From the UHGV virus genome UHGV-1421865: a DNA stretch of 64,000 nt, one strand, 5' to 3'. Positions 29,194 through 62,840 of this stretch are shown here, in pieces. Origin of the DNA: a virus. How positions within the stretch are numbered: the first letter of the stretch is position 1; the number at the start of each line of letters is the position of its first letter. The translations under genes were made by a program, and so were the position numbers. Under the pieces are notes generated by a model, which saw nothing but the letters and a program-made list of their open reading frames with translations, was not told where the DNA came from and did not search any database.

Positions 29194-29239
29194 AACCTAC
29201 TTGATTGTTTACTGTTACTATTTGGTACCCGAAGTGGGG

Positions 29240-29326: not shown

Positions 29327-29468
29327 CCGTCCCCAACCGCTATTATAGTATATGATTCATTACAAATTTATGGCTTCTGACTGGACGGTTTTGTAATTAC
29401 GCAGGAAATGTTCTTCATCTTAGGAAGACAAATCCCGAAACTGAATGTATTTATACATCAGCGAGTAG

Positions 29469-29540
29469 TATTCAGGCTGGGACTTGAACCCAGATTGGAT
29501 GTGTATAAGACATCTAGCCTAACCTTTAACTGACCTGAAC
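29469..29540 (-). tRNA. tRNA-Ile (anticodon UAU, reads AUA)
   Basis: Acceptor GTTCAGG/CCTGAAT; anticodon arm GATGT-CTTATAC-ACATC; T-arm CTGGG-TTCAAGT-CCCAG. Confidence 0.55.
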
Positions 29541-30684: not shown

Positions 30685-31041
30685 TCACTTGAATTTTGGT
30701 TTATATGCATCATCTATATGACAATTATCGAACATAAAACGATGGTATTTTACATTGCTGACGTCCCACTTAGACAAGTCACAGCTGAATTCTTTACAAC
30801 CAGAAAACATTTTGTCCATGTTCGTAACGTTAGAGACGTCCCATTCGTCGATTTTGATGTTTCTAATACCAACCCAAACAAATAAAAACGACATGTCTGT
30901 AATCAACGACGTATCAATGAAATTGAGATCAGCATCTGGACCTTGTCGCTTAATTTCTTCCATTATAATAGAAGTAAGTTCATCTTTTGATGTAGGCGTC
31001 AATGTTGCCGATTTTGTATTTGATGTGATATGTATTGCCAT
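30685..31041 (-). CDS. DUF285-type repeat protein family member (118 aa)
   Basis: Family N-terminal module MAIHITSNTKS...ELTSIIMEEIKRQGPDADLNFIDTSLITDMSFLF, then IDEWDVSNVTNMDKMF and CDLSKWDVSNV repeats. Confidence 0.7.
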   Translation of the reverse strand: MAIHITSNTKSATLTPTSKDELTSIIMEEIKRQGPDADLNFIDTSLITDMSFLFVWVGIRNIKIDEWDVSNVTNMDKMFSGCKEFSCDLSKWDVSNVKYHRFMFDNCHIDDAYKPKFK

Positions 31042-31935: not shown

Positions 31936-32392
31936 CTACATAAATTTAGGTTTTAGATCATCTGTCATCTTGTCACAAAACGTGAACATACCTGCTGCAT
32001 AAATCAAACTATTATTAGACCAACGAGACAGGTCACAATTGAGATTAGAACAACCATAGAACATCTCTGACATAGTGAACCTCGTGAACTTCGGTAAATT
32101 GTACATTGGATGTATTCCAAAGAGACAAATCACAGTTAAAATACTTACAATCGTAGAACATGCCGTGCATATCAGTGACATTACTGACATCCCATCCATC
32201 GATTTCAATGTACCTTATATTTTTCCTATAAAATAAGCATTCCATATTATCTATTTCAGATACATCAATGAAATTCAAATCAGCATCCGGACCTTGACGT
32301 TCCAGTTCTTGTTCTATGATAGTCTTGAGTTCATCTTTTGTCGATGGTTTAACTATACATGATTTTGTTGTAGATGTGATGTGAATTGCCAT
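31936..32392 (-). pseudogene. Frameshifted DUF285 family member (the track splits it into 32045..32392 and 31936..32208)
   Basis: The N-terminal part MAIHITSTTKS...WNTSNV and the C-terminal part MSEMFYGCSNLNCDLSRW... are in different frames. The junction carries a ~22-nt insertion with the 9-bp tandem duplication GAAGTTCAC-GAGGTTCAC. Confidence 0.6.
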
Positions 32393-39618: not shown

Positions 39619-39673
39619 TCATAATTATTTTTCTATAGTATAGTACATTTGTACAGGACAAATCAAAACCTCT

Positions 39674-39812
39674 AAAAATTTGCTCTCTGACGCACGATTT
39701 TTGTTGGACCTTACACATACTAAGGTCACTACATTTGAGTGTGTTAGAGAGCCTTAAAAGTGCCTTTACGAGGACGTTAGGTATTTACATACCAGTGCGC
39801 AAAACAGAAACT
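39674..39812 (+). repeat. Conserved structured intergenic element, copy F
   Basis: ctaaaaatttgctctctgacgcacgatttttgttggaccttacacatactaaggtcactacatttgagtgtgttagagagccttaaaagtgcctttacgaggacg...acagaaac. Confidence 0.6.
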
Positions 39813-39884
39813 GTCTAAATCAGTGCATTTTACAGAATCTACACGTACAGATTTTTACATATACAACAAATATAAACCGACACA

Positions 39885-45800: not shown

Positions 45801-46022
45801 GCTGGCGATGCCACATTAGAAGGCGGGGGTGTAGACTACGGTGGTACATCTAATTCAAGCACGACGATGAACGTTTCGGCGCCGTCCGGTTCTAGCACCG
45901 ACACTACTCCTACCACTAATAAAGCAAATAAAAAGAACGGTAGTATAGGTCTTACAGAACTCAACGAAGCACTCAGTGCAAACAACGACGTACTTGTTCG
46001 TAAATTAAAAGGTCGAAAATAG
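39885..46022 (+). CDS. Giant protein (2045 aa): putative tail tape-measure-like protein with N-terminal coiled coils, about seven tandem ~60-aa transmembrane-hairpin repeats and four C-terminal ~80-aa repeats
   Basis: TM-hairpin repeats (FMVLLVVSGAILLGAGMLMPLVNKEGLITFTVTLGLFLLGVGLVYKIMG x~7, aa ~720-1010). C-terminal repeats (LAQGVKDLAELKIPVYNGTTLTKYVTLGNETFSKVSTNVKSLILAVARPIVSTIKDNPDLF x4). Large size, alpha-helical and coiled-coil regions. No enzymatic motif recognised. Confidence 0.5.
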   Translation: MARSLMDTIRQRGIRTPSGEEPGSEERPSLVDSIISGALVSLLYGVDVSPRDGDDLSRQSQALGSNRNSLYSLIADIKRTLESRNDGTQPTLVEFSPTTQSKMDNIVRSLDRLIDIKGVLDTTAVELEFIRRLLENSNVLSTLPDNRNSIQQLDIVLRSDGNGIDKLVELLDKLKNFNIDDETAQRQIVGLTEVARVVNTLSDVNINRDVQNNVSVLNDIIKNLSSIQIPSSDTKQKQNATDFGERITNIIKAINKIFEDDTFKNLANNIKSIEEIKHKNDRDTFGIGMIVGFLASLSAFIDNANVISKKKVNKGFNKVLVSMSSEIVDSLSKVAHNMGSAKNDILVVSEMFSGYASFVDTALKISDRSLVSLLLLHVKLKLSSSVFNKAFLELVTSIKDISIQMGTISAVTRSDYRQQINNIKETYSQFNDTIEAIGDVISIRSMIKTMLKLKAAKGTVDSVNKLLTEMFTVSIPPRDAMQDRLDYYIELATGLKLVFDELRLVNDAGIGRLDKSIKNLVGAVKGLDALDKVVGKKTGKNVGRFIRGFMHTLSTIDENAINNAEETSKTFALVVGVAVGALLVVSAASLLISWKAVVMFAAALPLFILGVSKAAAKMSGLDIDDRSMSAFTDFVLSSTIAMAVGSFLMRFVQLTDLTMFVGGLIAMTIGVGTAYRIISAIANADTIKNVEAFNQMVLMSGTVLVIGSYITQYTNKDGIYKFLGMLGGFTAGVSLIYLGLAKILKDDVLNVSEQFVVLVAVSGAIMFAGALVSKLIDPVGLITFTASLGAFLFAVSGIYILLSKKIGKEAVQIGRDFMVLLVVSGAILLGAGMLMPLVNKEGLITFTVTLGLFLLGVGLVYKIMGSVVDDALKHARDFTILIAVSGAVLLAGGAILEAMGPKGIAHVILFGVLLFGFVYGLTWIYKKNAKDITTAFGVATGLALLVAVSGAVLLAGGAILELMGKEGAWYTVLFGVMLLGFVAALTWIYKKNATDIAMSIPTALALGILVAISGAVLLAGGKVIADNKDMWWAVPEFAAITVLFVGGMSTVMYLLSQIKGNLVQGGLAMLAIAGITWLMGKALQEVALVARIASVDEVKQVMLIGGVLITGVTAIAAALGAIITSGVGALLLGAGAAALAGVIGFVFAISEMVRNVVVTATILNNAPEIDFDKVNGLVTGMFGIAKNMVEAAPWTLMVKAKLVSSTIMDLIGSLGTVAQVVKDLADLKIPIYNGTKLSGYITIGDETFATVASNIEKIITAVTRPLVDTIKKNPDLFGTGDFFSNPFVDTPAVAAAKMVGHVGNSLSKVAQGVKDLAELKIPVYNGTTLTKYVTLGNETFSKVSTNVKSLILAVARPIVSTIKDNPDLFKEGAFNDSPAVNAAKAVGEIGKTLTPLAQGVQFWSMLKVPVYEGEKIKEYITLGDDQFAQVAINIKRVIEAVGGALVTTVKNSTFIFGSWNGGLISSDAPALNASKSILLISNSLSPIAQCLAYYASGKFPIITGYDAHGKPIIDLSTTITQDTMKVAQQNIKDVLTAILDVLKDVQGDFGGDWFGSGSDVERASKAVTEVANSLKTMVDVVGNMSKTDFATVNAQVNTTQKNIKSLLEGVVSIFTLFNSTAKDAEGKDMTNGWLSRIWNGKNKTIEQFLNDTAGDIKSAIGGIVDASKEISKLFTEISDLQKTITDNQNSVTSFIKQTPVEKGSKEMQYVIVKNIGNILSTFTAIVSSIDKEELSSNASDIKTIAKDVDTFTDGFGDILKSLTKAMQSTNSFVSADRSALGNLQAVLNEYKNSMLKMVTVFKGIGSVSMRDIADTTMYQDRAFNLLIRTAQNASNAGGNGYSILAKGILEIAEAEAQLGQNQTFAQHAAVMERYVQTINAVKVGNLDRLNSFAISLNNLAEKLGNVDKLTHALAVHLTGVLNRLVKEIERAEKTINNADKMQVRRFDMIKKSVKDVQKIMDKKLVVEVNQGMAGDATLEGGGVDYGGTSNSSTTMNVSAPSGSSTDTTPTTNKANKKNGSIGLTELNEALSANNDVLVRKLKGRK

Positions 46023-46107
46023 TACTTATCAATAACAAAATAAGACGGTCTCTGGAATGAACGAGATCGTCTTATTTCAGTTATATATCGACTAAACTCT
46101 AAACGTC

Positions 46108-46250
46108 CAAAAATCTCCTCTCTAACGCACGATTTTTCTTTGACCTTCACTAGGCTAAGCCTAGTATATTTGAGTGCGTTAGAGAGCCTTAAAAGTGCCT
46201 TTACGGGCTTGTAATGTATTTGTACGTCCCTGCCCAAAACAGAAAACGTA
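46108..46250 (+). repeat. Conserved structured intergenic element, copy G
   Basis: aaaaatctcctctctaacgcacgatttttctttgaccttcactaggctaagcctagtatatttgagtgcgttagagagccttaaaagtgcctttacgggc...aaaacagaaaac. Confidence 0.6.
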
Positions 46251-46322
46251 CAAATCAGGACAAAAAGTATGATTTATCATATAAAAACAGCTATTGTAAA
46301 TATACAAATATAGTAAATAAAT

Positions 46323-49845: not shown

Positions 49846-50958
49846 TTAATACAGTTCTATACGTAGACCTAACTTATTGGCTTTTAACATCTTAGATGAT
49901 GTAGAGTTTATATCACCCGTGAAGAGTACTTTCGCGTCTGACCAACTGTTTGTTTGAACGTACTGTGGATTCTTCTCCAGAAATTCTTTCTTAGACGCAT
50001 ATTTAGACGGACTACCCGTCAACATCACAGGCACTTGTGTAGTCTTGCTTGTACCGACGTGTAAGTTTGTAAGTTGACACATACCAATGCCGTAGTCAGT
50101 AAGTGCGTTAACCAACGCATTGAATTGCAACCATTTAGGTGATTGGTGATTATAGACCCAACTGTACCCTTCCGATGCGACACCACTGAAATCGGCTTGT
50201 CCAGTACCGATGAACTGCGCACATTTCTTAGCGCATGTGGAACCACATTTGTTGAAATTCAACGACTTGATGATGTCTACTAATGTGATTTGTCGTCGGT
50301 AATTCTTAAACGATTCGGCGGCTTTCTGCCCTCGTTTACCTTTCAACGCTTGTTCTATCTGTTCCGGTCTTACTTGGAGTATATTTGTTAAACTCTCGAA
50401 GTTATGTTGTAAAGTGTCGTACAACGCAGCCGCTACAGACGGACCGATGTTAGGTATCTTCAGAGTTTGTGCAGACGCGATGAACTGCCCACGGTTACTC
50501 ACAAGACCCACCAGATGACAACCTTCTACAACAGCATCATTTGGTAAACTACCGAGGTCCTTTGATGGATTGTCAAGTACAGAATAAAGAAACGGAATAA
50601 TGTCACCGGCTAAGGAAACTTCAATCTCCGTACCTATACCTACTTGATTATCAATAAGATAGCCGTAGTTATGTCCAGAACATTTAGTGACTATTTTATC
50701 AAGTAGTACAACAGGTTCAAAGACAATCACCGGTGTATACTCTCCGGTCTTACCTTGGTTCCATACAATATCTACTACCTTCGTCTTTTGAATTTCCGGA
50801 ACAAATTTCACAGCAACGCAGTCCGACGGTCGAACTTTATCGGTATTCTGTTCTCTGACAGGGAGTATAGGCTTGATAACAAACCCGTCCAGAGCATATT
50901 CACACTCTTCGGTACGGTATTTGTTAAAGTCGTTATATAGTTCTTGTAAGGTACTCAT
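49846..50958 (-). CDS. ligA: NAD-dependent DNA ligase, C-terminal fragment (from 20 aa before nucleotidyltransferase motif IV, through the OB-fold and HhH region)
   Basis: ALDGFVIKP (motif IV DGVVIK), VAVKFVPE (motif V), OB-fold WNQGKTGEYTPVIVFEPVVL, HhH-like GIGPSVAAALY. Its start ATG overlaps the thyA-family stop in a TAATG arrangement. Confidence 0.85.
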   Translation of the reverse strand: MSTLQELYNDFNKYRTEECEYALDGFVIKPILPVREQNTDKVRPSDCVAVKFVPEIQKTKVVDIVWNQGKTGEYTPVIVFEPVVLLDKIVTKCSGHNYGYLIDNQVGIGTEIEVSLAGDIIPFLYSVLDNPSKDLGSLPNDAVVEGCHLVGLVSNRGQFIASAQTLKIPNIGPSVAAALYDTLQHNFESLTNILQVRPEQIEQALKGKRGQKAAESFKNYRRQITLVDIIKSLNFNKCGSTCAKKCAQFIGTGQADFSGVASEGYSWVYNHQSPKWLQFNALVNALTDYGIGMCQLTNLHVGTSKTTQVPVMLTGSPSKYASKKEFLEKNPQYVQTNSWSDAKVLFTGDINSTSSKMLKANKLGLRIELY

Positions 50959-51926
50959 TATACTGCGATAGGTGCTTTAATAACAGGGGGTGTATAAGAA
51001 CCGTCGAAATGTTTCTTTACCTTTATCTGTCGGCTTTCGTACATCTCCAAAATATAACACAAATAAGCGTCTAAGGACATCGGTACATTCACAGTAGACA
51101 TGGTCATATCCAAGGTGCATTCTACGGTATGATAACATTGCGTCACATAGTCATCGGTATTAGTAAAGAACGAATCGATATATTCCTGTACAGCATCTTT
51201 ATGATTGTCGTAGATATGGAAATTATCGGCGGTATAGTATATATTTCCGCATTTTACTTTATCGATACCATATTTCTTTTTGAACCATTCATGGTTGACC
51301 TTAAAATAGCCGTTTATAAACCAGTTGAACCAAGAACAGAATATGAAATTATACGGCGCACCCAAGAACGCGTCGTTACTGCGAATATGAGCATGTAGGT
51401 TGTGTGTAAGTACTGTATTCCCAGCGTCGTCTGTGTCCAACTGAAATGTAACGTTATATTCGAACATACAAGGTGCCAGTGCCATTTCCGGTAGGTCGTT
51501 CACATTCCAAAGTGAGATAATATGTCGGCGCGAGAATAAATTGTTATTGAAACCTTCAAATAGTTGTTTCAACTGATCAATACCGTTAAAGTTTCGAAAC
51601 TGATAACCGTACGCCTTACCGATAGTACCATCTTCCTGTACCCATTCATCCCAATAGGTAACACCGTGGTCGCGAAGCCACTGTACGTCGGTCCGTCCTT
51701 GCAGCATCCAGAGTAGTTCGGTGAGTGCCATTCGAGGATAAACACGTTTTCCGTTCACCACCATCAGTCGAACTTCGTCGGACGGTGAAGGAGACTGTTC
51801 AAATACAAAGTTGATACCGTAAGAGTTCAACGTACTGATGTCGGTTCTATTCGACATTTTCTGTGTGACAGTCGACAATATGTTAGTAAGCTGTCTTACA
51901 TAGTCTGTTTCAAATAGTTGTGTCAT
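50958..51926 (-). CDS. thyA: ThyA-family enzyme (thymidylate synthase or dUMP hydroxymethylase), 322 aa, nested between the two ligase fragments
   Basis: ELLWMLQGRTDVQWLRDHGVTYWDEWV; RRHIISLWNVNDLPEMALAPCMFEYNVTF (E. coli [29 protein letters not shown]); IRSNDAFLGAPYN (RSxD...N, the dUMP-type Asn); TADNFHIYDNH; C-terminal KAPIAV. The His next to the catalytic Cys is Met here. Confidence 0.85.
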   Translation of the reverse strand: MTQLFETDYVRQLTNILSTVTQKMSNRTDISTLNSYGINFVFEQSPSPSDEVRLMVVNGKRVYPRMALTELLWMLQGRTDVQWLRDHGVTYWDEWVQEDGTIGKAYGYQFRNFNGIDQLKQLFEGFNNNLFSRRHIISLWNVNDLPEMALAPCMFEYNVTFQLDTDDAGNTVLTHNLHAHIRSNDAFLGAPYNFIFCSWFNWFINGYFKVNHEWFKKKYGIDKVKCGNIYYTADNFHIYDNHKDAVQEYIDSFFTNTDDYVTQCYHTVECTLDMTMSTVNVPMSLDAYLCYILEMYESRQIKVKKHFDGSYTPPVIKAPIAV

Positions 51927-52602
51927 TGTTTAATGGATATTCTAGTTTATAAAATTTAGGTGTCTTGGGAAGTCCGTACCATTCTCGTTCTGTCCACTTA
52001 CCGTTTTCTAATACTCTATAATCGTATATGATAATGTCTAAATCATCGTCGTATTCGTGAGATGTACTATTCAAGACACCCGATACCATCGAACGAGGAC
52101 TCGAGAACTTATCTTTGTATTTCTCTTCAAATGTCTTCAGTTTTACCAGCACCTCACCACGTATAACTGCCTGTGCACCATATACATAGTAGTCTGGATA
52201 AACCGATCGAATTTGCTTAATAAGGTGGCTACGCAAGTCTTTACCGTAATTCCCGTCGCCCCGAGACGATATGCTGCCAACAGTACCGTTCGCATTGATA
52301 ACACATTCGAAAGAACAACCGTCGAATTTCGGGGTCACTTCTATGGCATTATCACCGACATATTTTTTAATATCTTCTGTATAATTAGAAAAATCATCTA
52401 AGCTATGAACTTGGACCTTGTAGAGGGATCCCATTATAAACGGATGCCGTACAGTATATGTTGTACTGGATTTAGTACCGATATAAGACTTGTTCTCGAG
52501 ACCTAGCTCTTTCTCTAACGCGTCAAATTCTGTGTCAGACATTATCTCCTGCCCATTGTAGTATGCTTCTTTTGCTTTATGGTATAATTCTTCTTTTGTC
52601 AT
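51910..52602 (-). CDS. ligA: NAD-dependent DNA ligase, N-terminal fragment (Ia domain plus adenylation motifs I-III), 230 aa
   Basis: KxDG adenylation motif TPKFDGCSFE; motif III VIRGEVLV. It ends in a TGA, 17 nt after the thyA-family start in another frame. Confidence 0.85.
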   Translation of the reverse strand: MTKEELYHKAKEAYYNGQEIMSDTEFDALEKELGLENKSYIGTKSSTTYTVRHPFIMGSLYKVQVHSLDDFSNYTEDIKKYVGDNAIEVTPKFDGCSFECVINANGTVGSISSRGDGNYGKDLRSHLIKQIRSVYPDYYVYGAQAVIRGEVLVKLKTFEEKYKDKFSSPRSMVSGVLNSTSHEYDDDLDIIIYDYRVLENGKWTEREWYGLPKTPKFYKLEYPLNNDTTI

Positions 52603-52682
52603 CTTATCATCATATAGTTTATACTTTATATAGTATAGTTTACAAGAAAAATCAGCTACTTAAAACATTGTTTTGGGTCTAC

Positions 52683-52835
52683 TTTGACAGTTTCTATTTC
52701 GTGTACCGACGTGTACAAATCTAGAATCGTCATAAAGGCACTTTAGAGCTCCTGTATCGCGTCGAAATTATCTAGCCTTACTACAACCAAGGTCAACTAA
52801 TTTGTACGCGATACAGGAGAGATTTTTATTGAGTT
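52683..52835 (-). repeat. Conserved structured intergenic element, copy H (reverse orientation)
   Basis: The reverse complement matches the family: ...aaaaatctctcctgtatcgcgtacaaattagttgaccttggttgtagtaaggctagataatttcgacgcgatacaggagctctaaagtgcctttatgacgattctagatttgtacacgtcggtacacgaaatagaaactg. Confidence 0.55.
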
Positions 52836-53001
52836 TCAAATGGGTACACTGACGCCGTGTGGGACACGTTGTGTGTACCGTCTTGATGCTTTGCATCAAA
52901 TTGTTCACAAAGTGAACATAATTAAGACCTCAGTAGACTTATAACAATCTACTGAGGTCTCTAACTATGACTACTAAATCAATTTATAAATCAATCAAAT
53001 T

Positions 53002-53151
53002 TCGGCAGTTTATAAGTCAGTAGGGACCTTGGTTTTTAATCTCTTGCTCTATTAGTACACGCAACTCGTTGTAAGTAGCAGGTTTTAATTTAGCCGATTT
53101 CGTATTCGATGTGATCTTTAGACGTTCGTTAATGAAATTTTGTAGACTCAT
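53002..53151 (-). pseudogene. DUF285 family 5' gene remnant (49 codons, ends after KNQGP)
   Basis: Manual translation gives MSLQNFINERLKITSNTKSAKLKPATYNELRVLIEQEIKNQGPY, then a stop. The family N-terminal module is truncated before DADLN. Confidence 0.5.
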
Positions 53152-53171
53152 TTATTCGCTAGTATTGTTTA

Positions 53172-53810
53172 TCAGTCTTTGAATTTTGGTTGAAGTTGTG
53201 GATTAGTTCCCATATTAGGACATTTATCAAATGTCATATAATACTTGATTACTTTCGACACATCCCACTCAGACAAGTCACAATTGAAACGTTCGCAAAA
53301 ATAGAACATATAACTCATATTTTTAACATTGGTGACATTCCAAGAACTTAAATCTACATTTAGCTTTTTACACCAAGAGAACATATCTTCCATGTTTTCT
53401 ACTTTACTAACGTTCCAATTTTCTATACCTTTGCCTTCAAATTTTTTACATTCATAAAACATGAAAGACATGTTCGTTACATTAGAGGTGTTCCAATTTT
53501 CTACTCCATCGCCTCTGAAGTTATCTTGACCTACAAACATGTTTTGCATAGTAGTTACATTTGATGTATTCCACTGGTCAATTTTGATATTTCCGATGTT
53601 TAATTTATAAAACAAACTAACCATATCTGTAATCTCCGATGTATCTATAAAGTTCAAATCGGCGTTCGGACCTTGTTCTTTTAGTTCTTGTTCTATAATA
53701 GATCTGAGTTCGTCTTTTGTTTTAGGTCTCAATCTTAATGGTTGGGTATCGGGCGTAATCTTTAATCGTTCTGTGATTAAACTATCGTGAATGTATCGTG
53801 AAAGTGACAT
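53172..53810 (-). CDS. DUF285-type repeat protein family member (212 aa); 3' ~215 bp identical (inverted) to the 3' end of 58151..58696
   Basis: MSLSRYIHDSLITERLKITPD...EQGPNADLNFIDTSEITDM, then repeats. The C-terminal 70 aa are identical to the paralog 58151..58696. Confidence 0.7.
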   Translation of the reverse strand: MSLSRYIHDSLITERLKITPDTQPLRLRPKTKDELRSIIEQELKEQGPNADLNFIDTSEITDMVSLFYKLNIGNIKIDQWNTSNVTTMQNMFVGQDNFRGDGVENWNTSNVTNMSFMFYECKKFEGKGIENWNVSKVENMEDMFSWCKKLNVDLSSWNVTNVKNMSYMFYFCERFNCDLSEWDVSKVIKYYMTFDKCPNMGTNPQLQPKFKD

Positions 53811-53827
53811 TGAAGTAAATATGTATG

Positions 53828-55525
53828 TTAAACACCAGTACCGTCTAAAATCTTTCTAGCAACGTCATTTATTATTAAATGTTGGTTATTAGGAAACATT
53901 TGAAGTACTTCGCTTAAGTTGTCGACATAGTAGTCGTACACTTTGATATTTGTTATATTGCCAGGAAATGAATACAATACTATCTCCGATTTCTGTAATA
54001 TAGGAATATCCATGGTATATTGTTCGTGAAGCGTACTATTATCGCCGGCGGCATTGTCCATATCGAAGAAATAATGAACCGGTGCTAACTTATATATCGG
54101 TAATCGTTTATCGAAAGTGTATTTATAAGATGAAAACTCTACTGTTTTCAAATCGGGACAACATCTAAACACGACAAACCAGGTATCGCCTGTTTCCAAT
54201 TTAAGACCGCCGCTCTTCATTTTGTTTACCTTTAACGTACCGTTTTTGATATTGAATTTGAAGTCTCCAATAGAAAATAAAGGACCGTCATAGAGGTCGT
54301 CTGTCATACTGACAATAAATGATATAGTAAAAGCCTGCCCACAGAACTTTCGTTGGTATATCGTCGACGGTCGACCGAAGATCTTACTCATGTCGACATT
54401 CGGATCTTGTATATAATTAGACGAACGAACAAAATTGTACTGTGAGTCTGCGATTAAGGTTCCTTTATAATAGAGATTTTCACCCGTATTGATGTGTGTC
54501 GTTACGGTATCAACATATTTTCGTATCGCATCGCTTTCGTATACCGGTGTTAGGGTATTCGGTGCAGGTAACGGTGCTGATAATGTCTGGGTACCGGCGT
54601 CAACAGTGTCGTCGTATTCTGTAAACAAGTCCTCGTATTTCTTAGTAACAAAACTGTCTACCATCACCGAAAACTCGTCTTTCATATTAACACTGTCTTT
54701 CTCTTGGTATTTTACCAGTGCTAATTTGAACGTTGTGCCTATCCACATCAGCCCTTCCGATTTCTCTTCGTACGCACCGTTTACCATCCACATTCTCTTT
54801 GTTAACGGTATATAAATAAGATCACCTTCCATAGGTTGCACAGTATCACCAAAAGCCGTTGCAAAAGCCTCTTTTGTGACTTCTGTTTCCCAGTCGAGTT
54901 GAAAGTCCATTCCGAAGTCGGCAAATTCTGGTTTCGACGACGGCATCCTACCTTCCGGAACGACGAGTTTAATCATCTTAACACTTTCGACGTCCATCAA
55001 GGCGTATTCTTTGAATGTAAGATCCTTCGAACCGACATTGGGACTGAGTTTGAAATAGTAAACGGGAATACCGAAAAGGTCCCCTACCATATTCACCAGT
55101 TTGTTCTGTAATGCGACAGCGCCGTCGAGATTAGAATAAGGATTGAAATTGGCAGGTGTTGATTTACCGTACAAGAACTCAAAACATGACTCTTGACTAG
55201 TATTGTAGTCAATAACGTCTTCGCTGTTTATCTTTATTCCGCTAACAAGGCCTTTTATTTTAATACGAACATACAGGTCTTGACCTACTGCATTGATACC
55301 TGACAAGAACTCTTCCCACGACATATAGCACGACCAGGTAACAGTATCTAACGAATAAGCATATTCTAAACATGTCTCGTCGTACTGTGCTCCTTTATCG
55401 TCATACAAGTATATAGACGACAATTTTGACGGTGACAGCGGGAGATTGATGTTGATCACCTGGGGTACCGTCAAACATCCGGTGGCTGCATTTGTCGTTA
55501 CATCTTCCGGAATCGTAGAAATCAT
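53828..55525 (-). CDS. Hypothetical protein (565 aa), probably structural; translationally coupled to the CHAP peptidase
   Basis: Long ORF overlapping the CHAP gene start by 4 nt. No recognisable catalytic motif. Confidence 0.5.
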   Translation of the reverse strand: MISTIPEDVTTNAATGCLTVPQVININLPLSPSKLSSIYLYDDKGAQYDETCLEYAYSLDTVTWSCYMSWEEFLSGINAVGQDLYVRIKIKGLVSGIKINSEDVIDYNTSQESCFEFLYGKSTPANFNPYSNLDGAVALQNKLVNMVGDLFGIPVYYFKLSPNVGSKDLTFKEYALMDVESVKMIKLVVPEGRMPSSKPEFADFGMDFQLDWETEVTKEAFATAFGDTVQPMEGDLIYIPLTKRMWMVNGAYEEKSEGLMWIGTTFKLALVKYQEKDSVNMKDEFSVMVDSFVTKKYEDLFTEYDDTVDAGTQTLSAPLPAPNTLTPVYESDAIRKYVDTVTTHINTGENLYYKGTLIADSQYNFVRSSNYIQDPNVDMSKIFGRPSTIYQRKFCGQAFTISFIVSMTDDLYDGPLFSIGDFKFNIKNGTLKVNKMKSGGLKLETGDTWFVVFRCCPDLKTVEFSSYKYTFDKRLPIYKLAPVHYFFDMDNAAGDNSTLHEQYTMDIPILQKSEIVLYSFPGNITNIKVYDYYVDNLSEVLQMFPNNQHLIINDVARKILDGTGV

Positions 55526-56037
55526 GCGAAACGAAATATATTACAAACACCGTCACCGGAATACGGCCACATTTTGTTCTGAATAAAATCGCTAATCCAT
55601 CGCTTTCCTGTCCACATACAGATATGACCGTGTTGACCGTGGTTCATTACGGCAATATCACCGGGCACGGCGCTGGTATTCGTCCATTCCGCCTGTTTTG
55701 TGACACCGGACAGCATAGCAACGTGTTTGAAACCGATCTTGGGTAAGAATTCGGTGTATTTATACGCCGACGTAGGACGACCTGCGGTAGAAAGACCTCC
55801 GGCTTCTATTGCCTGACGAACATACATCGCACACCGCCCTACAGAAGACACATTCGCCGCAGATGTTAGGTGTGTTAGCGCTTTACGAATATCCCATCCT
55901 GTTTTCGACGGAATATAATTTCCTATAAGACTATTTCCTGACATAGATACATTTTGTCCTAAATTTATAGACGAGAGTATTCCGGATAGGATACCCTCTT
56001 TTGTATAACCTTCCATATACTTAAAAATCAGATACAA
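55522..56037 (-). CDS. CHAP-domain peptidoglycan hydrolase (endolysin or virion-associated lysin)
   Basis: The Cys...His arrangement CAMYVRQAIEAGG ... GDIAVMNHGQHGHICMW is typical of CHAP/NlpC-P60 amidases or peptidases. Confidence 0.7.
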   Translation of the reverse strand: MYLIFKYMEGYTKEGILSGILSSINLGQNVSMSGNSLIGNYIPSKTGWDIRKALTHLTSAANVSSVGRCAMYVRQAIEAGGLSTAGRPTSAYKYTEFLPKIGFKHVAMLSGVTKQAEWTNTSAVPGDIAVMNHGQHGHICMWTGKRWISDFIQNKMWPYSGDGVCNIFRFA

Positions 56038-56135
56038 TCTGATTCAACATTTCAATTTATTGAAATCAAAAATCCATCGCATGTGGATTTCACAATTAGG
56101 CTCTACAGAAATCTACTTCGTAGTTATTTAGTATA
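56038..56135 (-). promoter_or_regulatory. Palindromic hairpin array (AAATC...GATTT arms plus ttcaatttattgaa) upstream of the CHAP gene; same architecture as 3660..3790
   Basis: aatcagattgtatctgatt, ttcaatttattgaaatcaaaaatc and aaatccatcgcatgtggattt. Confidence 0.35.
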
Positions 56136-57998
56136 TCACACAGAAGCAGATCGTCTGTCGGAGATATTGTCTTTATCGAACCATAATGTAATAGCGGCAT
56201 CCGCAGCGTCGTCTTTTGTGAAATAGAGATAGTTCTTACTTCGCATCATCTCTTTGTACTGTGCCGTATTCTGTCCACCGAGACCTTTGATGTGTTTGAT
56301 GTCGCAGCCTTTCAATTTTGACGGATACTTCTTTTGGAAATCCCTAAATTCGTCTAATGTATAGAAATTATAACTATCTTTCTTCGACGATGCGATGATA
56401 ATAGGACTGATAACACGGCAGATTAGTTTCTGTTCGAACAGTTCGGGGAAATGATTAAAGAACACTAACAACAGCGACGCAATCTTATCCCCGTCATAGT
56501 CCATATCGGTAGAGATAACGATACGAGAGAACTTTAGATCTTTTTTATTATTGTATTTGCCCCATTGTAGACCTATCACTTTTACGATGTCGTTAAAGAC
56601 TTGGTTCGTCATCACCTTGGTTGGTTTAAGCCCATAGGTATTGAGGGGAACACCGCGCATTAGATAACCGGCTTGATTATCCGGATTTCTACCGGCTCTG
56701 AATCCCGATGCCGCGGAATCGCCTTCGAAAATCCATAGTTCGTTGTCCTGAGTCTTTTTAGAGTTACAGTTGATGAACTTGTCGTTACGAAGTAGCTTAC
56801 CGGCGTCTTTATTTAGTTTTCGTAGCTTCTTTGCGTCTTCGGCTTGCTCTTTCTTGGTATACCAGTCTAAGATGTTGTCGATAATCTCAGACTTCAGAAC
56901 TTTGTTTATAACATCTTGCGATAGTTCGTAATTGGGGTCCTTCGACAGGTTGTTGGTAAGACATTCTTTCGTCTGTGAGTCGTAAGTCGGATTATATACG
57001 GTGAATTTACAAAACAAGCTATACTGTGCGTCTATGGACTGCAATGTCGTTTGTATTTTCTTCTTTTTAAGTAAGAACTCTTGAATAGCCTTATTAAGTA
57101 CGCTCTTAATAGACTGAATGTGTGTGCCTCTGGAACATTCTACACCGTTTACAAAGCCTACTGTTACTTGTTTATCGTCCGACGGCAGTATGGTGTATTC
57201 TTTAATTGTATCCTTATATGATACTACTTTATTAGATACATCAAGACCGTACAGTTTAATATAGTCGTCAAAGTTGCCGAATTTGAATTTGTGGTGCTCG
57301 GTATTGTCGTTATAAGTCACTTCGAGACCTGGATTCGCAGCGGCGGCGTCGGCACATCGTTTGATAATAAGCGGTACAATGTCTTTAATAGAGAAAGCTT
57401 CGAATCTACTGTCGTCGATAACAAATATCGTCCGCATATAATGTTTCTTAGACGGCTTTACTTTTAGATCGTCGCAGAGCTCCCGCATATTGTTCTTCCA
57501 TGTACGATGGTATGCTTTCTTGCCGTCGGCACATTCGATAACAAATTCTTTAGAGAAGATATTGGCCAGCGACGCACCGACACCGTTTGTTCCGACAACA
57601 TTGCGGGACTCATCGTCGTTATAATTAGAAGATGTACGAAGTCGACCGAAAATGAACTCGGGAAGATAACAACCGGCGGTGCTGTGCTTTTGAACGGCGA
57701 TACCCCCGTTGTCTTCTACCGTTACCTTGTTTGTCTTCAAGTCGATTGTAACATTGATTTTATTAAGCCCCATATTAGAATCGCGACGGTATTCGTCGCA
57801 CGAGTTTGAGATAACTTCGTCGATAATCTTCAACACACCCGGTACGTAACTAATTTCCGACTGAACTATTACGTCACCCGACCAATGATAGGTATTAGAC
57901 TGCGTTAGTTTAGTCGATCCGATGTACATACCCGGACGGAGGAGGATATGATCTAGTTCGTCTAATTCTTTATATATATCTTCAATTTTCTTTTTCAT
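56136..57998 (-). CDS. Type II DNA topoisomerase ATPase/Toprim subunit (T4 gp39-like / GyrB-like), 620 aa
   Basis: N-terminal LDHILLRPGMYIGS (GHKL ATPase) and Toprim ELWIFEGDSAASG. There is no breakage-reunion domain, so the partner subunit must be encoded elsewhere. Confidence 0.9.
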   Translation of the reverse strand: MKKKIEDIYKELDELDHILLRPGMYIGSTKLTQSNTYHWSGDVIVQSEISYVPGVLKIIDEVISNSCDEYRRDSNMGLNKINVTIDLKTNKVTVEDNGGIAVQKHSTAGCYLPEFIFGRLRTSSNYNDDESRNVVGTNGVGASLANIFSKEFVIECADGKKAYHRTWKNNMRELCDDLKVKPSKKHYMRTIFVIDDSRFEAFSIKDIVPLIIKRCADAAAANPGLEVTYNDNTEHHKFKFGNFDDYIKLYGLDVSNKVVSYKDTIKEYTILPSDDKQVTVGFVNGVECSRGTHIQSIKSVLNKAIQEFLLKKKKIQTTLQSIDAQYSLFCKFTVYNPTYDSQTKECLTNNLSKDPNYELSQDVINKVLKSEIIDNILDWYTKKEQAEDAKKLRKLNKDAGKLLRNDKFINCNSKKTQDNELWIFEGDSAASGFRAGRNPDNQAGYLMRGVPLNTYGLKPTKVMTNQVFNDIVKVIGLQWGKYNNKKDLKFSRIVISTDMDYDGDKIASLLLVFFNHFPELFEQKLICRVISPIIIASSKKDSYNFYTLDEFRDFQKKYPSKLKGCDIKHIKGLGGQNTAQYKEMMRSKNYLYFTKDDAADAAITLWFDKDNISDRRSASV

Positions 57999-58009
57999 AC
58001 ATTTATTTA

Positions 58010-58140
58010 TAGCGATTTTTGTGAACTGAATCAGTGCATATCATGTAGTGAATCAACATGTTTACATACAAAAAATCAATGTAGCCAATATAATTAAAAT
58101 GTGAAATCCGTTATACACTGATTTTTACATATAAGAACAA
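58010..58140 (+). promoter_or_regulatory. Cluster of TTTGTGA-N-AAAATCAGTGTA-type motifs upstream of the DUF285 gene block
   Basis: tttttgtgaactgaatcagtgcat and aaaaatcaatgtagcc, plus an inverted copy tacactgatttttac, all within 130 bp upstream of 58151. Confidence 0.35.
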
Positions 58141-58150
58141 AAGAATTCTA

Positions 58151-58696
58151 ATGTCACTTTCAACATTCATCACAGAACGATTAAAGATTACATCTAACTC
58201 TAAATCAGCTATACACAAACCATCGTCGAGAGACGAACTCAAATCTATTATAGAACAAGAACTGGAACGTCAAGGTCCGGATGCCGATTTGAACCATATT
58301 GACGTATCTTACATTACAGATATGTCTTATTTATTTTACAAATTAAACATCGAAAACATTAAAATCGACCAGTGGGACGTTTCCAATGTCACTAATATGG
58401 AAGGGATGTTTTATGAATGTAGTAATTTTGAAGGCAACGGCCTAGAAAACTGGGACGTATCGAACGTCACTACTATGGAAGATATGTTCTCTTGGTGTAA
58501 AAAGCTAAATGTAGATTTAAGTTCTTGGAATGTCACCAATGTTAAAAATATGAGTTATATGTTCTATTTTTGCGAACGTTTCAATTGTGACTTGTCTGAG
58601 TGGGATGTGTCGAAAGTAATCAAGTATTATATGACATTTGATAAATGTCCTAATATGGGAACTAATCCACAACTTCAACCAAAATTCAAACAGTAA
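58151..58696 (+). CDS. DUF285-type repeat protein family member (181 aa)
   Basis: MSLSTFITERLKITSNSKSA...ERQGPDADLNHIDVSYITDMSYLF, then repeats. The 3' 215 bp are identical to 53172..53810 in inverted orientation. Confidence 0.7.
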   Translation: MSLSTFITERLKITSNSKSAIHKPSSRDELKSIIEQELERQGPDADLNHIDVSYITDMSYLFYKLNIENIKIDQWDVSNVTNMEGMFYECSNFEGNGLENWDVSNVTTMEDMFSWCKKLNVDLSSWNVTNVKNMSYMFYFCERFNCDLSEWDVSKVIKYYMTFDKCPNMGTNPQLQPKFKQ

Positions 58697-58702
58697 TCAA
58701 CA

Positions 58703-59299
58703 ATGGCAATACACATCACATCAAATACAAAATCTCTCAGAGTAAAACCTACGGACGAAACAGAATTACGTGACATTGTCGAACAAGAGTTAGACAGTCA
58801 AGGTCCAGATGCCGACCTGAACTTCATTGATACGTCTCTTATAACAGATATGAGGGGGCTATTTTATAGTTTTAGAGGTATTAGAAATATCAAGATAGAC
58901 AAGTGGGACACTTCAAATGTTTTGGACATGCGTTCTATGTTCGGCAAATGTTACGAATTAAACACTGATCTATCTAAGTGGGACGTTTCAAATGTTAAAA
59001 ATATGTCACACATGTTCATCGAATGTTATAAATTCAATTCGGACCTATCCGGTTGGGACACATCAAGTGCGGTTAACATGGAATCTATGTTCGACAGCTG
59101 TACAATTTTTGAATCCGACTTATCCGAATGGAATACCAGTAAAGTTACCCACATGTCTAGTATGTTTCAAAAATGCTCTAAATTCGAGTCTGACCTATCC
59201 GCTTGGGATGTATCGAATGTCAAAAAGAACGGTGGGATGTTTTATATGTGTACTAAAATGATGGGTAAAAAACATCTACAACCTAAATTTAATATATAA
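58703..59299 (+). CDS. DUF285-type repeat protein family member (198 aa)
   Basis: MAIHITSNTKSLRVKPTDETELRDIVEQELDSQGPDADLNFIDTSLITDM, then five repeats. Confidence 0.7.
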   Translation: MAIHITSNTKSLRVKPTDETELRDIVEQELDSQGPDADLNFIDTSLITDMRGLFYSFRGIRNIKIDKWDTSNVLDMRSMFGKCYELNTDLSKWDVSNVKNMSHMFIECYKFNSDLSGWDTSSAVNMESMFDSCTIFESDLSEWNTSKVTHMSSMFQKCSKFESDLSAWDVSNVKKNGGMFYMCTKMMGKKHLQPKFNI

Positions 59300-59304
59300 A
59301 TAAT

Positions 59305-60081
59305 ATGTCACTTTCAAAATACATCACAGAACGGTTAAAGATTACGTCGAATACAAAATCGGCCAATAACCAACATACATTGTTTCCTAAAGATTTAAAG
59401 GAGCTCCTACCGATATTAGAAGATGAAATTAAAAAACAAGGTCCAGATGCTGACTTGAATCACATTGACGTATCGCAAATTACAGAAATGCACGATTTAT
59501 TTTATAGAATTTACATTAGAAACATCAAAGTCGACAAATGGGACGTGTCGAATGTAGTGAATATGCGTAAAGCGTTTACTGGTCATAAAGACTTTAACGC
59601 TGACCTATCATCCTGGGATGTATCAAATGTAGAGAATATGCGTAGTATGTTTGAAGGATGCCCGAACTTCAATGCTGACCTGTCAGAATGGGATGTATCT
59701 AAGTGTAGAGATTTCTGTAACGTATTTAATGGATGTGAAAAATTCAACCATGATCTGTCTAATTGGGATGTTTCTAAGGCTTGGATTACAGCAGGTATGT
59801 TTCAGGATTGTAATAGTTTTGAATCAGATTTATCTTCTTGGAATGTATCTAATGTAAAGGACATGAATAGGATGTTCCAAAACTGTTGGAAATTCAATTC
59901 CGATCTGTCTGGTTGGAATGTATCAAAAGTTGAAACAGTATCACAAATGTTCGAGAATTGTACAAGATTTAGAAGTAATTTATCTAAATGGGATGTAAAT
60001 CGTGTAAAAACTTGGTATAAGTTCAGTGCTGAGTGTCCAAATTTTAATGATAAGAGTAATTTGCCTGAAAAACTTAGATAG
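59305..60081 (+). CDS. DUF285-type repeat protein family member (258 aa)
   Basis: MSLSKYITERLKITSNTKSA...KKQGPDADLNHIDVSQITEM, then seven repeats (WDVSNVVNMRKAF ... WNVSKVETVSQMF). Confidence 0.7.
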   Translation: MSLSKYITERLKITSNTKSANNQHTLFPKDLKELLPILEDEIKKQGPDADLNHIDVSQITEMHDLFYRIYIRNIKVDKWDVSNVVNMRKAFTGHKDFNADLSSWDVSNVENMRSMFEGCPNFNADLSEWDVSKCRDFCNVFNGCEKFNHDLSNWDVSKAWITAGMFQDCNSFESDLSSWNVSNVKDMNRMFQNCWKFNSDLSGWNVSKVETVSQMFENCTRFRSNLSKWDVNRVKTWYKFSAECPNFNDKSNLPEKLR

Positions 60082-60113
60082 ATTTAAACAATACTAACTA
60101 TATTTAATACACT

Positions 60114-60965
60114 ATGTCACTTTCAAAATACATCACAGAACGATTAAAAATTACGTCAAATAGCAAATCGGCTACTAGACTAAAACCTAAAACAAGATAT
60201 GAGCTTAGTTCGTTGATAGGGGAAGAATTAGAACGTCAAGGTCCCGATGCCGATTTGAACTTTATCGACACATCGGATATTACAGACATGTCTGAGTTGT
60301 TTTCTGGGTTTAACATAGAAAACATCAAAATAGACCAGTGGGACGTTTCTAATGTCGATAATATGTATCGTATGTTTAATTTATGTACTAGCTATAATGG
60401 TGACTTGAGCAATTGGGACGTTTCTAATGTTGAGAACATGTATGGTATGTTTAACGGTTGTATGTCATTTACCGGAGAAGGTATAGGAAATTGGAATGTC
60501 TTAAATGTTACTAATATGTCGACAATGTTTATGGGTTGTAAAGTATTGAATCCTGACCTATCTGGATGGGACGTTTCTAATGTCAATGACATGCGCGCTA
60601 TGTTCGATATGGCAAATTCTTTTGAAGGGAAAGGTTTAGATAAATGGCGTACCACCAAGCTTACTGATACAAAACAGATGTTTTATGGTTGTGATAATTT
60701 CAATTGTGACTTGTCTGACTGGGATGTGTCTAACGTAACAACCATGTTATCTATGTTTGAGTCTTGTTATAAATTTGATTCTAATTTGGGTAAGTGGGAC
60801 GTTAGCAATGTGACGGATATGAAATTTATGTTCAGAAACTGTTATAATTTCAAAGGCATCGGTTTGGAAATGTGGAATACTTCAAATGTAATTACAATGA
60901 ATTCAATGTTCGACGGTTGTAAGAAATTAAATGTCGATTTAAGTTCTTGGAATGTTTGTTTCTAA
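60114..60965 (+). CDS. DUF285-type repeat protein family member (283 aa), 3'-truncated relative to its paralogs
   Basis: MSLSKYITERLKITSNSKSATRLKP..., then eight repeats. It ends abruptly at ...KKLNVDLSSWNVCF-stop, where paralogs continue TNVKNMSYMF... Confidence 0.65.
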   Translation: MSLSKYITERLKITSNSKSATRLKPKTRYELSSLIGEELERQGPDADLNFIDTSDITDMSELFSGFNIENIKIDQWDVSNVDNMYRMFNLCTSYNGDLSNWDVSNVENMYGMFNGCMSFTGEGIGNWNVLNVTNMSTMFMGCKVLNPDLSGWDVSNVNDMRAMFDMANSFEGKGLDKWRTTKLTDTKQMFYGCDNFNCDLSDWDVSNVTTMLSMFESCYKFDSNLGKWDVSNVTDMKFMFRNCYNFKGIGLEMWNTSNVITMNSMFDGCKKLNVDLSSWNVCF

Positions 60966-61044
60966 AGTAGGACCTTATAATACATTTAAGCTAAAATCTG
61001 GCACCCACCCAAATTCAATATCTAAAAATAACACAGTTTCACTA

Positions 61045-61506
61045 ATGTCACTTTCACAATACATCACAGAACGACTAAAGATTACATCTAATAGTAAATC
61101 TGCAACAGTGACACCAAAGTCAAGAGACGAACTCAGATCTCTTATAGAAAAAGAATTAGAACACCAAGGCCCAGATGCTGATCTAAATTTCATTGATACA
61201 TCTGAGATTACCGATATGTCATACCTGTTCGAAGACTGTAATATCAGAAACATCAAAATAGACGAATGGGATGTCAGCAATGTAACTGATATGCGCGGCA
61301 TGTTTGTTTGGCGTAAAGATTTCAATTGTGACTTGTCTCGTTGGGACGTATCTAACGTCACAAACATGACTGATATGTTCAACACCTGTAAAGAATTTAA
61401 CTGTGACTTATCCGGTTGGGATGTATCTAATGTTGTTAAGCATTTTAGTGTATTTTTTAACTGTGATAAGATACAAGATAACATGACTCCTAAATTCAAT
61501 AAATAA
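61045..61506 (+). CDS. DUF285-type repeat protein family member (153 aa; the track ORF 60952.. has a spurious 5' extension)
   Basis: MSLSQYITERLKITSNSKSATVTPKSRDELRSLIEKELEHQGPDADLNFIDTSEITDM, then three repeats. Confidence 0.7.
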   Translation: MSLSQYITERLKITSNSKSATVTPKSRDELRSLIEKELEHQGPDADLNFIDTSEITDMSYLFEDCNIRNIKIDEWDVSNVTDMRGMFVWRKDFNCDLSRWDVSNVTNMTDMFNTCKEFNCDLSGWDVSNVVKHFSVFFNCDKIQDNMTPKFNK

Positions 61507-61523
61507 ATAAATAAATCAAAAAT

Positions 61524-62051
61524 ATGAGTTTACAAAAATACATCAAAGAAGCACTGTCGCCCGGTAGCTTTAATAACAAACCTACTACGACACAAGAACT
61601 CAGAGATCTTATAAAAGAGGTGTTTGATAAACAAGGACACAATGCCGACCTGAACTTCATCGATACGTCGTTGATTACTGATATGTCCGAACTATTCAGA
61701 GACCTTTATCCCCAAAACATCAAAATCGACAAATGGGATGTCTCTAATGTGACGAAGATGAACCACATGTTTGTCGATTGTATGTATCTTAAAACAGATA
61801 TTTCTGATTGGGACACCAGCAATGTTACAGATATGCAATATATGTTCTGTAATTGTAGTTACTTCAACGGTGACTTGTCCGGTTGGGACGTATCTAACGT
61901 TACTAACATGGATTTGATGTTCAAAGGTTGTGCGCGACTGGAATGCGACTTATCCTATTGGGATGTCGACAATGTAGAAACTCACTTCGACGCTTTTGAA
62001 GGTTGTGAAAAGATGACCGATGAAATGCTACCGAAATTTGAATTTTCATAA
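61524..62051 (+). CDS. DUF285-type repeat protein family member (175 aa; variant N-terminus)
   Basis: MSLQKYIKEALSPGSFNNKPTTTQELRDLIKEVFDKQGHNADLNFIDTSLITDM, then four repeats. Confidence 0.7.
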   Translation: MSLQKYIKEALSPGSFNNKPTTTQELRDLIKEVFDKQGHNADLNFIDTSLITDMSELFRDLYPQNIKIDKWDVSNVTKMNHMFVDCMYLKTDISDWDTSNVTDMQYMFCNCSYFNGDLSGWDVSNVTNMDLMFKGCARLECDLSYWDVDNVETHFDAFEGCEKMTDEMLPKFEFS

Positions 62052-62840
62052 ATGAAACTACAAAAATTCATCACAGAACGGTTAAAGATTACGTCTAAGT
62101 CAAGACCACTCAAACTAACAGAACGTACATTGTTTCCGACTAACTCCGGGCAACTTAAAGCTGTAATAAAACATGAATTGAAACATCAAGGTCCGGATGC
62201 CGATTTGAACCATATCGATACTTTTAAGATCACCGATATGTCTAAATTATTTGAATCTCTACAAATCGGAAACATCAAAATCAACGAATGGGACGTCAGT
62301 AATGTCACTAATATGAGGTTCATGTTTAGCGGGCGTACTAAATTCAATTGCGACTTGTCCGGTTGGGACGTCAGTAATGTAACAGATATGGGGTTCATGT
62401 TTAGTAGTTGTACGTTATTTGAGGGTGGTGGTTTAGATCATTGGGATACGTCCAACGTGGCAGATATGGAACAGATGTTTTACGGTTGTGAGAATTTCAA
62501 TTGTGACCTATCTAGTTGGTCTTCGCGTGTCTCTAATGTGACAAATATGAACGGTATGTTTTCTGGAGCTGATAAATTTGAAGGTAATGGTTTAGATCAT
62601 TGGGATACGTCCAACGTGACACGCATGCGTGCTATGTTTAAGGGTTGTAAGGTTTTTGAAAGCGACATATCCGGTTGGGATACGTCAAATGTTGAGGACA
62701 TGTCGTATATGTTTATGGACTGCGGTAAGTTCAAATCAAATCTATCAGGCTGGAACGTATCTAAATTAGGCGGTCCTCAGATTAATATATTCAAAAATTG
62801 TCCTAAGATGATACCTCCGTTGAGACCTCGATTTGAATAG
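62052..62840 (+). CDS. DUF285-type repeat protein family member (262 aa)
   Basis: MKLQKFITERLKITSKSRPLKL...KHQGPDADLNHIDTFKITDM, then seven repeats. Confidence 0.7.
   Translation: MKLQKFITERLKITSKSRPLKLTERTLFPTNSGQLKAVIKHELKHQGPDADLNHIDTFKITDMSKLFESLQIGNIKINEWDVSNVTNMRFMFSGRTKFNCDLSGWDVSNVTDMGFMFSSCTLFEGGGLDHWDTSNVADMEQMFYGCENFNCDLSSWSSRVSNVTNMNGMFSGADKFEGNGLDHWDTSNVTRMRAMFKGCKVFESDISGWDTSNVEDMSYMFMDCGKFKSNLSGWNVSKLGGPQINIFKNCPKMIPPLRPRFE

Follow-up and report, generated by a model that had tools for sequence, protein, structure and literature searches.

An inverted repeat at the 3' ends of two diverged DUF285 genes in a human oral jumbo phage: probable gene conversion and an assembly-dependent perfect identity

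Two genes of the DUF285/PARCEL family, called here gene A and gene B, have identical 3' ends that form an inverted repeat in the virus genome UHGV-1421865. The stretch of 64,000 nucleotides (nt) that was analyzed, hereafter the window, belongs to a T4-like jumbo phage of ~220 kb from the human mouth. Since the two genes are clearly diverged elsewhere, the locus raises the question of how they came to share this sequence, and whether the repeat serves to turn over the segment that it encloses. A first-pass annotation of the sequence had proposed a recent gene conversion between inverted paralogs, which would also provide a substrate for inversion. Our analysis makes it probable that such a conversion took place, that it left a patch of 36 nt unconverted, and that the unbroken 216 nt of the window were merged in assembly; the tract was probably copied from gene B to gene A. 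The repeat lies within the following features.

53172..53810, minus strand: gene A, a DUF285/PARCEL protein of 212 residues (PF03382, E=2.6e-49) with an extended N-terminus and one repeat unit more than gene B
58151..58696, plus strand: gene B, a DUF285/PARCEL protein of 181 residues (PF03382, E=5e-45), the probable donor of the tract
53178..53393, minus strand: left arm, exact repeat as assembled; the 3' end of gene A minus its last codon and stop (216/216 matches)
58475..58690, plus strand: right arm, exact repeat; the 3' end of gene B minus its last codon and stop, the same in the window and in the assembled loci L010, L018 and L019
53394..58474, no strand: unique inter-arm segment of 5,081 nt, holding the 5' parts of genes A and B and the genes for p565, a CHAP-like hydrolase and the large subunit of topoisomerase II (topo II)
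53177 and below: left-flank-specific bases beyond the left arm, TGATAAACAATAC

An ungapped comparison of the two gene ends gave 216 consecutive matches between 53178-53393 and the reverse complement of 58475-58690, with 5,081 nt (53394-58474) between the arms. The block encodes 72 identical residues in the two proteins (MEDMFSW...QPKFK). It is followed by a last sense codon for D in gene A and Q in gene B, and by the stop codons TGA and TAA, respectively. The block starts with ATGGAAGATATGTTC, 9 nt more upstream in the genes than the 'gatatgttc' at which the first-pass annotation had placed its end; the repeat coordinates given there proved correct to within a few bases. Upstream of the block, genes A and B are identical at 72.8% of the aligned positions (236/324 nt) and at 61% of the third codon positions, in agreement with the earlier description of two diverged genes in which identity ends abruptly. 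At this upstream rate, the probability of 216 straight matches is ~2e-30, and the repeat is therefore not due to chance. A self-comparison of the whole 64-kb window placed all other DUF285 paralog pairs at ~86% identity or less. When lower identity was allowed in a repeat search of the window, the same arm pair (I1) stretched to 332 nt at 89%. Similarity between the genes also goes on downstream of the block, where 10/14 nt match beyond the stop codon. The step in identity sits at 53393/53394, where it rises from 72.8% to 100% in the window, or to 94.9% in other assemblies of the same phage.

This second value comes from four other public assemblies that cover the left flank: ERZ28662559 scaffold_17 (L010/L015/L033), ERZ988856 assembled by MEGAHIT at k127 (L016/L034), ERZ27263143 at k119 (L017) and ERZ27263334 at k119 (L035). 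L010 could be compared with the window over 20,173 nt and shows 11 mismatches, all of them at 53224-53259 in the left arm. The identical 11 substitutions were found in all four assemblies, and in L010/L015, L016 and L017, for which 3-21 kb each were compared, they are the sole differences from the window. Gene A reads ...SNVTNYYEIFKR... in these assemblies, whereas gene A of the window and gene B read ...SKVIKYYMTFDK... The other assemblies thus have one allele of the patch on the left (patch A) and another on the right (patch B), and the window has patch B on both sides. The arms can be divided accordingly.

53260..53393 (mirror 58475-58608), minus strand: inner 134-nt block; arms identical in every assembly, with MEGAHIT contigs ending 127 or 119 nt into it on both sides
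53224..53259 (mirror 58609-58644), minus strand: 36-nt patch; B-type in the window, patch A in the four assemblies, with 11 substitutions and the residues NVTNYYEIFKR
53178..53223 (mirror 58645-58690), minus strand: outer 46-nt block; arms identical in all assemblies, with the Logan k=31 contig L020 beginning 30 nt inside

The contig L016 starts at 53386 and the right-flank contig L018 at 58482, each 127 nt (the k used) into the 134-nt block that the arms share. Because four assemblies agree on patch A and the contigs end k bases into the 134 nt, the reproducible repeat consists of 134 nt and 46 nt around the patch. Its identity is 205/216, or 94.9%. The claim of ~215 identical nt therefore held for the window, with 216/216 matches, and failed in the four other assemblies, with their patch of 11 mismatches. 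Judged by the ~95% over the aligned arms that the first-pass annotation had taken as a lower limit, the window gives 100% and the other assemblies 94.9%.

The uninterrupted 216 nt are present solely in the window's own assembly, a contig of 223,118 nt. Patch A is in frame and similar to other members of the DUF285 family. Two further differences were found between the window and other assemblies, a single-nucleotide polymorphism (SNP) in another DUF285 gene (position 30722) and one copy of a 40-nt tandem repeat (25021-25149), so that all differences found fall in repeated DNA. The SNP, in the gene at 30685-31041 (minus strand), is nonsynonymous: the window and a Logan contig of run ERR589709 encode Cys, and the SPAdes contig NODE_12 encodes Phe. 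The position is Cys across the DUF285 family members compared. The tandem repeat is perfect, lies among tRNA genes and has 3.2 copies in the window and 2.2 copies in a SPAdes assembly of the same phage.

In de Bruijn assembly, near-identical repeats can collapse by bubble merging. The patch has the features expected of such a case: alleles of 36 nt lie between identical sequences, assemblies of the same data differ, and the other differences are also in repeats. A 36-nt variant flanked by 46 and 134 identical bases would resemble a simple bubble for de Bruijn assembly at k <=46. The unbroken 216 nt are most likely two patch alleles merged by the assembler.

The origin of the shared sequence was addressed by comparison with related strains (L026 and L028-L032), which are ~91% identical to the window at the nucleotide level in topo II and p565. 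No inverted repeat of this kind was found in these strains, where the best paralog pairs are at most ~83% identical. The identity of the block is therefore recent and specific to the lineage of the window. In the relatives a single homolog of the arm, 83-87% identical, is found at the B locus (83-86% for the block against s178/Bort); by synteny, gene B is the positional counterpart of their 178-residue gene (s178), which diverges from topo II. Compared with this single s178 gene, A and B each have a mosaic structure. The homology between A and B runs in register with 75-nt units over the 324 nt upstream of the block. The abrupt step from 73% to 100% within continuous homology, together with the absence of such a pair in the relatives, supports the earlier proposal of a recent gene conversion between inverted paralogs.

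We propose that A and B are long-standing paralogs, in inverted orientation, within the DUF285/PARCEL multigene family. The 3' module of one gene would have been copied onto the other by homologous recombination, without reciprocal exchange and in this lineage only. The product would be a mosaic in which 134 nt and 46 nt became identical and the 36-nt patch between them was left unconverted. An assembler working at k <=46 could then have merged both patch alleles as a bubble, giving the unbroken 216 nt of the window. The inverted repeat itself would be a passive by-product and not part of a dedicated switch, although occasional homologous inversion of the 5,081 nt would be possible. The tract was probably copied from B to A, but this direction is not settled.

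Gene conversion among diverged paralogs underlies antigenic variation at the Neisseria pilE/pilS loci, at Borrelia vlsE and in the Mycoplasma MgPa repeats. As in these systems, a short tract appears to have been copied non-reciprocally, and mosaic genes with abrupt identity steps are seen. Unlike these systems, genes A and B show a single tract in one lineage, with no sign of an expression site, silent cassettes or a programmed high frequency. We read the A/B tract as the ordinary trace of a gene conversion in a multigene family that is prone to recombination.

Several points weigh against this account. The merging of a bubble presupposes an assembler working at k <=46, and the gene A allele of the window, recorded on no contig but that of 223 kb, may exist as a genuine variant. 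A third paralog that might have donated patch A was not found at <=8 mismatches in 41 nt in the window and all fetched loci, together ~66 kb out of the at least 220 kb of the genome. With respect to polarity, the upstream part of gene A is 82.7% identical to the relatives' B-locus gene, and gene B itself is 76.9% identical to it. An attempt to recognize patch A as the 'A-type' sequence through the 214-residue gene of L026 was dropped, as this gene is not discriminating at the nucleotide level (33/41 vs 31/41).

The identity of 216 nt could itself be real if part of the population, or another sample of the same person, had the patch converted as well, with the partly and fully converted forms of gene A existing side by side. 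A separate contig of 223,118 nt (JGI/IMG and ENA) indeed encodes the gene A protein of the window, and the phage is present in at least two runs (ERR589709 and ERR589488). Moreover, the window allele at position 30722 is confirmed in the ERR589709 reads through the Logan contig, which suggests that the window assembly is not simply error-prone. We nevertheless consider a real identity unlikely, given that four of the five assemblies carry patch A, that the MEGAHIT contig L018 continues without a branch from patch B to right-flank sequence, and that repeats also hold the remaining points at which the window departs from the assemblies, as would be expected of assembly effects. An artefact in the patch appears about three to four times likelier to us than a real, fully converted variant. 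Such an artefact does not extend to the repeat as a whole. The metagenome reads are of low coverage (~5x) and the gene family is rich in repeats, but independent contigs enter the block from the left flank, from the right flank and from both ends of the segment at equal coverage, and it is hardly credible that the entire inverted repeat was created by assembly. A recent inverted segmental duplication, placing a copy of the fragment at another site, would account for the single arm homolog of the relatives, at the B locus only, and for gene A having no clear positional ortholog downstream of p565 in these strains. However, the homology between A and B reaches past either end of the block, with 72.8% identity in the 324 nt upstream and 10/14 matching nt downstream, and the internal diverged patch is better suited to patchy conversion. 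Because the homology continues on both sides and the patch within it is unconverted, conversion is favored over an inserted duplicate, which we regard as improbable.

The question of whether the segment inverts has to take into account how its orientation was obtained. The SPAdes contig L013 corresponds exactly to 53394-58474, and the MEGAHIT contigs L011 and L012 consist of the inter-arm segment plus 127 nt and 119 nt, respectively, at each end. SPAdes coverage is equal over the segment and both flanks (5.5, 5.2 and 5.3), indicating that they are single-copy parts of one genome. With contigs leading into the shared block from the two flanks and the two segment ends, and at equal coverage, two inverted copies of it must be present in one genome. 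On the other hand, short-read contigs break exactly at the repeat, and the orientation of the segment is therefore a scaffolding call. Both long scaffolds give the same orientation, which keeps the order of the relatives, with topo II followed by the divergent B-like gene and then a 198-residue gene.

The consequences of an inversion for the proteins were modeled in silico. Both genes start inside the segment, run outward in opposite directions and end in the arms, and an inversion would only join each N-terminal part to a near-identical C-terminus. In the version of the window each protein would be altered in its last residue only; in the version of the other assemblies the last residue and seven positions in the 11-residue patch stretch would be substituted (eight residues). 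Among the eight combinations of N-terminus, patch and last residue that were looked up, only A with patch A and D, A with patch B and D, and B with patch B and Q exist. Products of an inversion or a reciprocal exchange, such as A_pB_Q and B_pA_D, were absent from a collection of 15 billion proteins. An exact look-up of proteins A and B in a separate index of encoding contigs found neither, although L010 encodes B with identical DNA, and absence from that index therefore carries no weight; both proteins were found among the cluster members.

These data bear on two further explanations. Homologous recombination could act on an exact repeat of at least 134 nt around 5,081 nt, and it is plausible, in principle only, that the segment is occasionally inverted in this way. 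The population could then contain two isomers, which would add to an origin by conversion rather than replace it. In plastid genomes and in the L and S segments of herpesviruses, flip-flop isomers arise through homologous recombination across inverted repeats. The locus resembles them in having a unique segment between inverted repeats and the same ambiguity in the assembly graph, and differs in that its repeat is one to two orders of magnitude shorter and no isomers were observed in assemblies. A perfect repeat of 134-216 nt is a valid recombination substrate in a T4-like phage, de Bruijn contigs break at the repeat so that the graphs permit either orientation, and the genes of the segment would stay co-directional with their neighbors after inversion. 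In contrast, both long scaffolds show one orientation, that of the relatives, and the recombinant proteins are not on record, a point of little weight as few assemblies of the strain exist. Coexistence of two isomers therefore seems to us rather unlikely, somewhat more so than a real identity of 216 nt. A programmed switch is a different matter. The G segment of phage Mu with Gin, the C segment of P1 with Cin and the R64 shufflon are inverted by site-specific recombination at sites of ~26-34 bp. Our locus shares their geometry alone, as an inverted repeat around a segment lies within the 3' parts of two oppositely oriented genes for surface-type repeat proteins. No serine or tyrosine recombinase, or any other recombinase family, was found in Pfam scans or precomputed Pfam matches of called genes in the region and the window, and the only open reading frames (ORFs) of mobile-element type, an IS605-type TnpB and a TnsA-like ORF, are >25 kb away. 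The repeat consists of 134-216 nt of coding homology instead of a crossover site of ~30 bp, and it is absent from the sister strains. Furthermore, inversion would swap near-identical C-termini, leave the N-terminal parts unaltered and create no different protein. With no recombinase found in these scans, an inversion almost neutral for the proteins and relatives that lack the repeat, a programmed invertible switch was rejected and is effectively excluded.

A combination of these possibilities would have wider implications. Partly (134 + 46 nt) and fully (216 nt) converted gene A alleles might coexist in one person's oral phages, the 5-kb segment might flip, and DUF285/PARCEL arrays might be the main engine of structural variation. 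We consider this combination doubtful; if true, the coexisting alleles would show paralogs in the middle of a gene conversion, in a jumbo phage that is widespread in the human mouth. The main value of the probable account, a conversion with an unconverted patch, is cautionary, as the perfect identity of 216 nt is the one part that other assemblies fail to reproduce. Caution applies to the annotation of gene A, to inferring recombination from perfect repeats on this contig and to the orientation of the segment, which is unreadable from short-read graphs. The locus is also a further documented case of DUF285/PARCEL arrays as recombination hot spots, here in a jumbo phage.

Recombination in this family extends beyond genes A and B, as indicated by several further members in the window.

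53017..53151, minus strand: 44-residue 5' remnant of a DUF285 gene (translation; comparison with L026 and L028-L031)
58703..62840, plus strand: tandem array of six further DUF285 genes downstream of gene B (Pfam; 75-nt unit spacing)
60114-60965: 3'-truncated DUF285 member, part of the array downstream of gene B
31936..32392, minus strand: frameshifted DUF285 member, passing from frame 1 to frame 2 within family-type sequence

Translation and frame analysis confirmed that the 5' remnant, the 3'-truncated member and the frameshifted member named in the first-pass annotation are all real. Its view that the family is actively recombining is supported by these defective members, by the A/B mosaics and by a large difference between two related strains. 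L028 and L029 encode the same p565 protein and are 99.4% identical at the DNA level; they differ by a 4.1-kb block of six tandem DUF285 genes (L028 12665-16761) and also in the left flank beyond position 5594. In the relatives, the array downstream of p565 contains 2 to ~9 genes and is followed by the genes for the prohead protease, gp23 and the sheath. In the strain of the window it is reduced to gene A and the 44-residue remnant, followed by 414 nt of non-coding sequence and a module with ligase and thymidylate synthase genes (52603-53151 compared with the relatives). The head genes (prohead protease, gp23 and sheath) are not in the 64-kb window. As the array and head genes that the relatives have at this place give way to the module, the remnant probably marks a large rearrangement whose breakpoint fell within a DUF285 gene. 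The variation in gene number between nearly identical strains could matter if DUF285 proteins mediate host interaction.

PARCEL/DUF285 (PF03382) families are present in Mollicutes, other microbes, the giant virus AaV (Kratosvirus quantuckense) and the jumbo phage pir03, where a 25-residue (75-nt) unit occurs in tandem arrays with variable copy number and where intragenomic shuffling and duplication have been reported (PMC2996958; PMC10720644; PMC7765460). The DUF285 genes of the window are similar in their matches to PF03382 (E=1e-45 to 1e-78), their 75-nt unit, their tandem arrays and their variable copy number, and the recombination seen among them fits the shuffling described for these families. 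The spacing of the units is 75 nt or multiples of it, and the Tandem Repeats Finder period is 75. Bit scores for PF03382 are 166 for A, 153 for B and 175-260 for the other array genes tested, with a gathering cut-off of 25. In contrast to the known families, the proteins of the window are short (115-283 residues), share a conserved N-terminal domain of ~50 residues, and are encoded beside head/neck and replication genes of an oral T4-like jumbo phage. Nothing resembling a signal or lipoprotein sequence was seen by eye in these proteins. The coding DNA of PARCEL genes has been described as having dyad symmetry (PMC2996958). In a minus-strand self-BLAST the array gave 35 short matches, compared with 8 in a control region, only a weak signal of such symmetry. 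The antisense strand of the DUF285 genes is open for up to 174 codons (e.g. 60975-61499, minus strand), a feature reminiscent of the symmetry described for PARCEL genes.

The segment between the arms contains three complete genes.

53828..55525, minus strand: p565, a head-closure/neck-type structural protein (phrog_679 'head closure Hc2', E=1.4e-8; weak match to PF11649)
55522..56037, minus strand: probable CHAP-type peptidoglycan hydrolase of 171 residues (PHROG endolysin, E=7.9e-13; weak matches)
56136..57998, minus strand: DNA topoisomerase II large subunit, similar to T4 gp39 (phrog_543, E=8.5e-150; Pfam GyrB/Toprim)

A member of the p565 cluster, DAO66455.1, is named 'head closure knob'. 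The match of the hydrolase to the Pfam CHAP domain (E=0.006) is under the curated cut-off. The topo II large subunit has 49% amino acid identity to that of Prevotella Lak megaphages, and no relatives of it were found in IMG/VR. The divergent intergenic region of the segment is at 57999-58150, between topo II and gene B. The small (A-type, PF00521) subunit of topo II is encoded at L018 8789-10147, past the right end of the window and ~9 kb beyond the 3' end of gene B. As it lies downstream of the DUF285 array, several kb of array separate the genes for the two topoisomerase subunits. DUF285 genes are also found near the small subunit, at L018 8375-8611 and 10422-10818.

The exact proteins of the window were found in oral metagenome assemblies (run ERR589709, sample SAMEA2738095, project PRJEB6997), and a contig from run ERR589488 likewise encodes its DNA polymerase B. 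The p565 cluster at 90% identity contains 45 sequences; it draws on several independent metagenome assemblies and has members on contigs of 205-223 kb. Relatives of the phage encode gp23, gp13, a prohead protease and a tail sheath. A Megablast comparison of 52900-58900 with GenBank phages gave no match, and an exact 57-mer from the arm had 0 matches in each of IMG/VR, the JGI metagenomes and the GTDB genomes, which thus yielded no further copies of the strain. More distant relatives of p565, with 42-49% identity, come from IMG/VR contigs that reach 435 kb, with three in the range of 376-435 kb. They have only the CHAP-p565 pair in common with the window and are therefore uninformative on the repeat; no long tracts above 95% identity were found in their DUF285 arrays.

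Several other features of the window were noted. The NAD-dependent DNA ligase gene next to the remnant (49846-52602, minus strand) is split into an ORF for the adenylation domain (51910-52602) and an ORF for the OB and C-terminal domains (49846-50958). A complete ORF for thymidylate synthase (50958-51926) lies between the two halves and overlaps both. At 23523-29540 (minus strand), 16 tRNA genes are interrupted by the IS605-type TnpB, which is itself split into a 284-residue ORF (27397-28251) and a 93-residue ORF with the TNB domain. The TnsA-like ORF, corresponding to the N-domain (18628-19173, plus strand), comes after an ORF of 1,601 residues (13905-18710, plus strand). An ORF of 2,045 residues at 39885-46022 (plus strand) has no Pfam match. 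Intergenic repeats of ~150 nt, 80-85% identical to each other, are present at ~3793-3966, 19226-19388, 22917-23099, 23136-23343, 39657-39823 and 46090-46266. They may act as promoters or regulatory elements, or represent miniature mobile elements.

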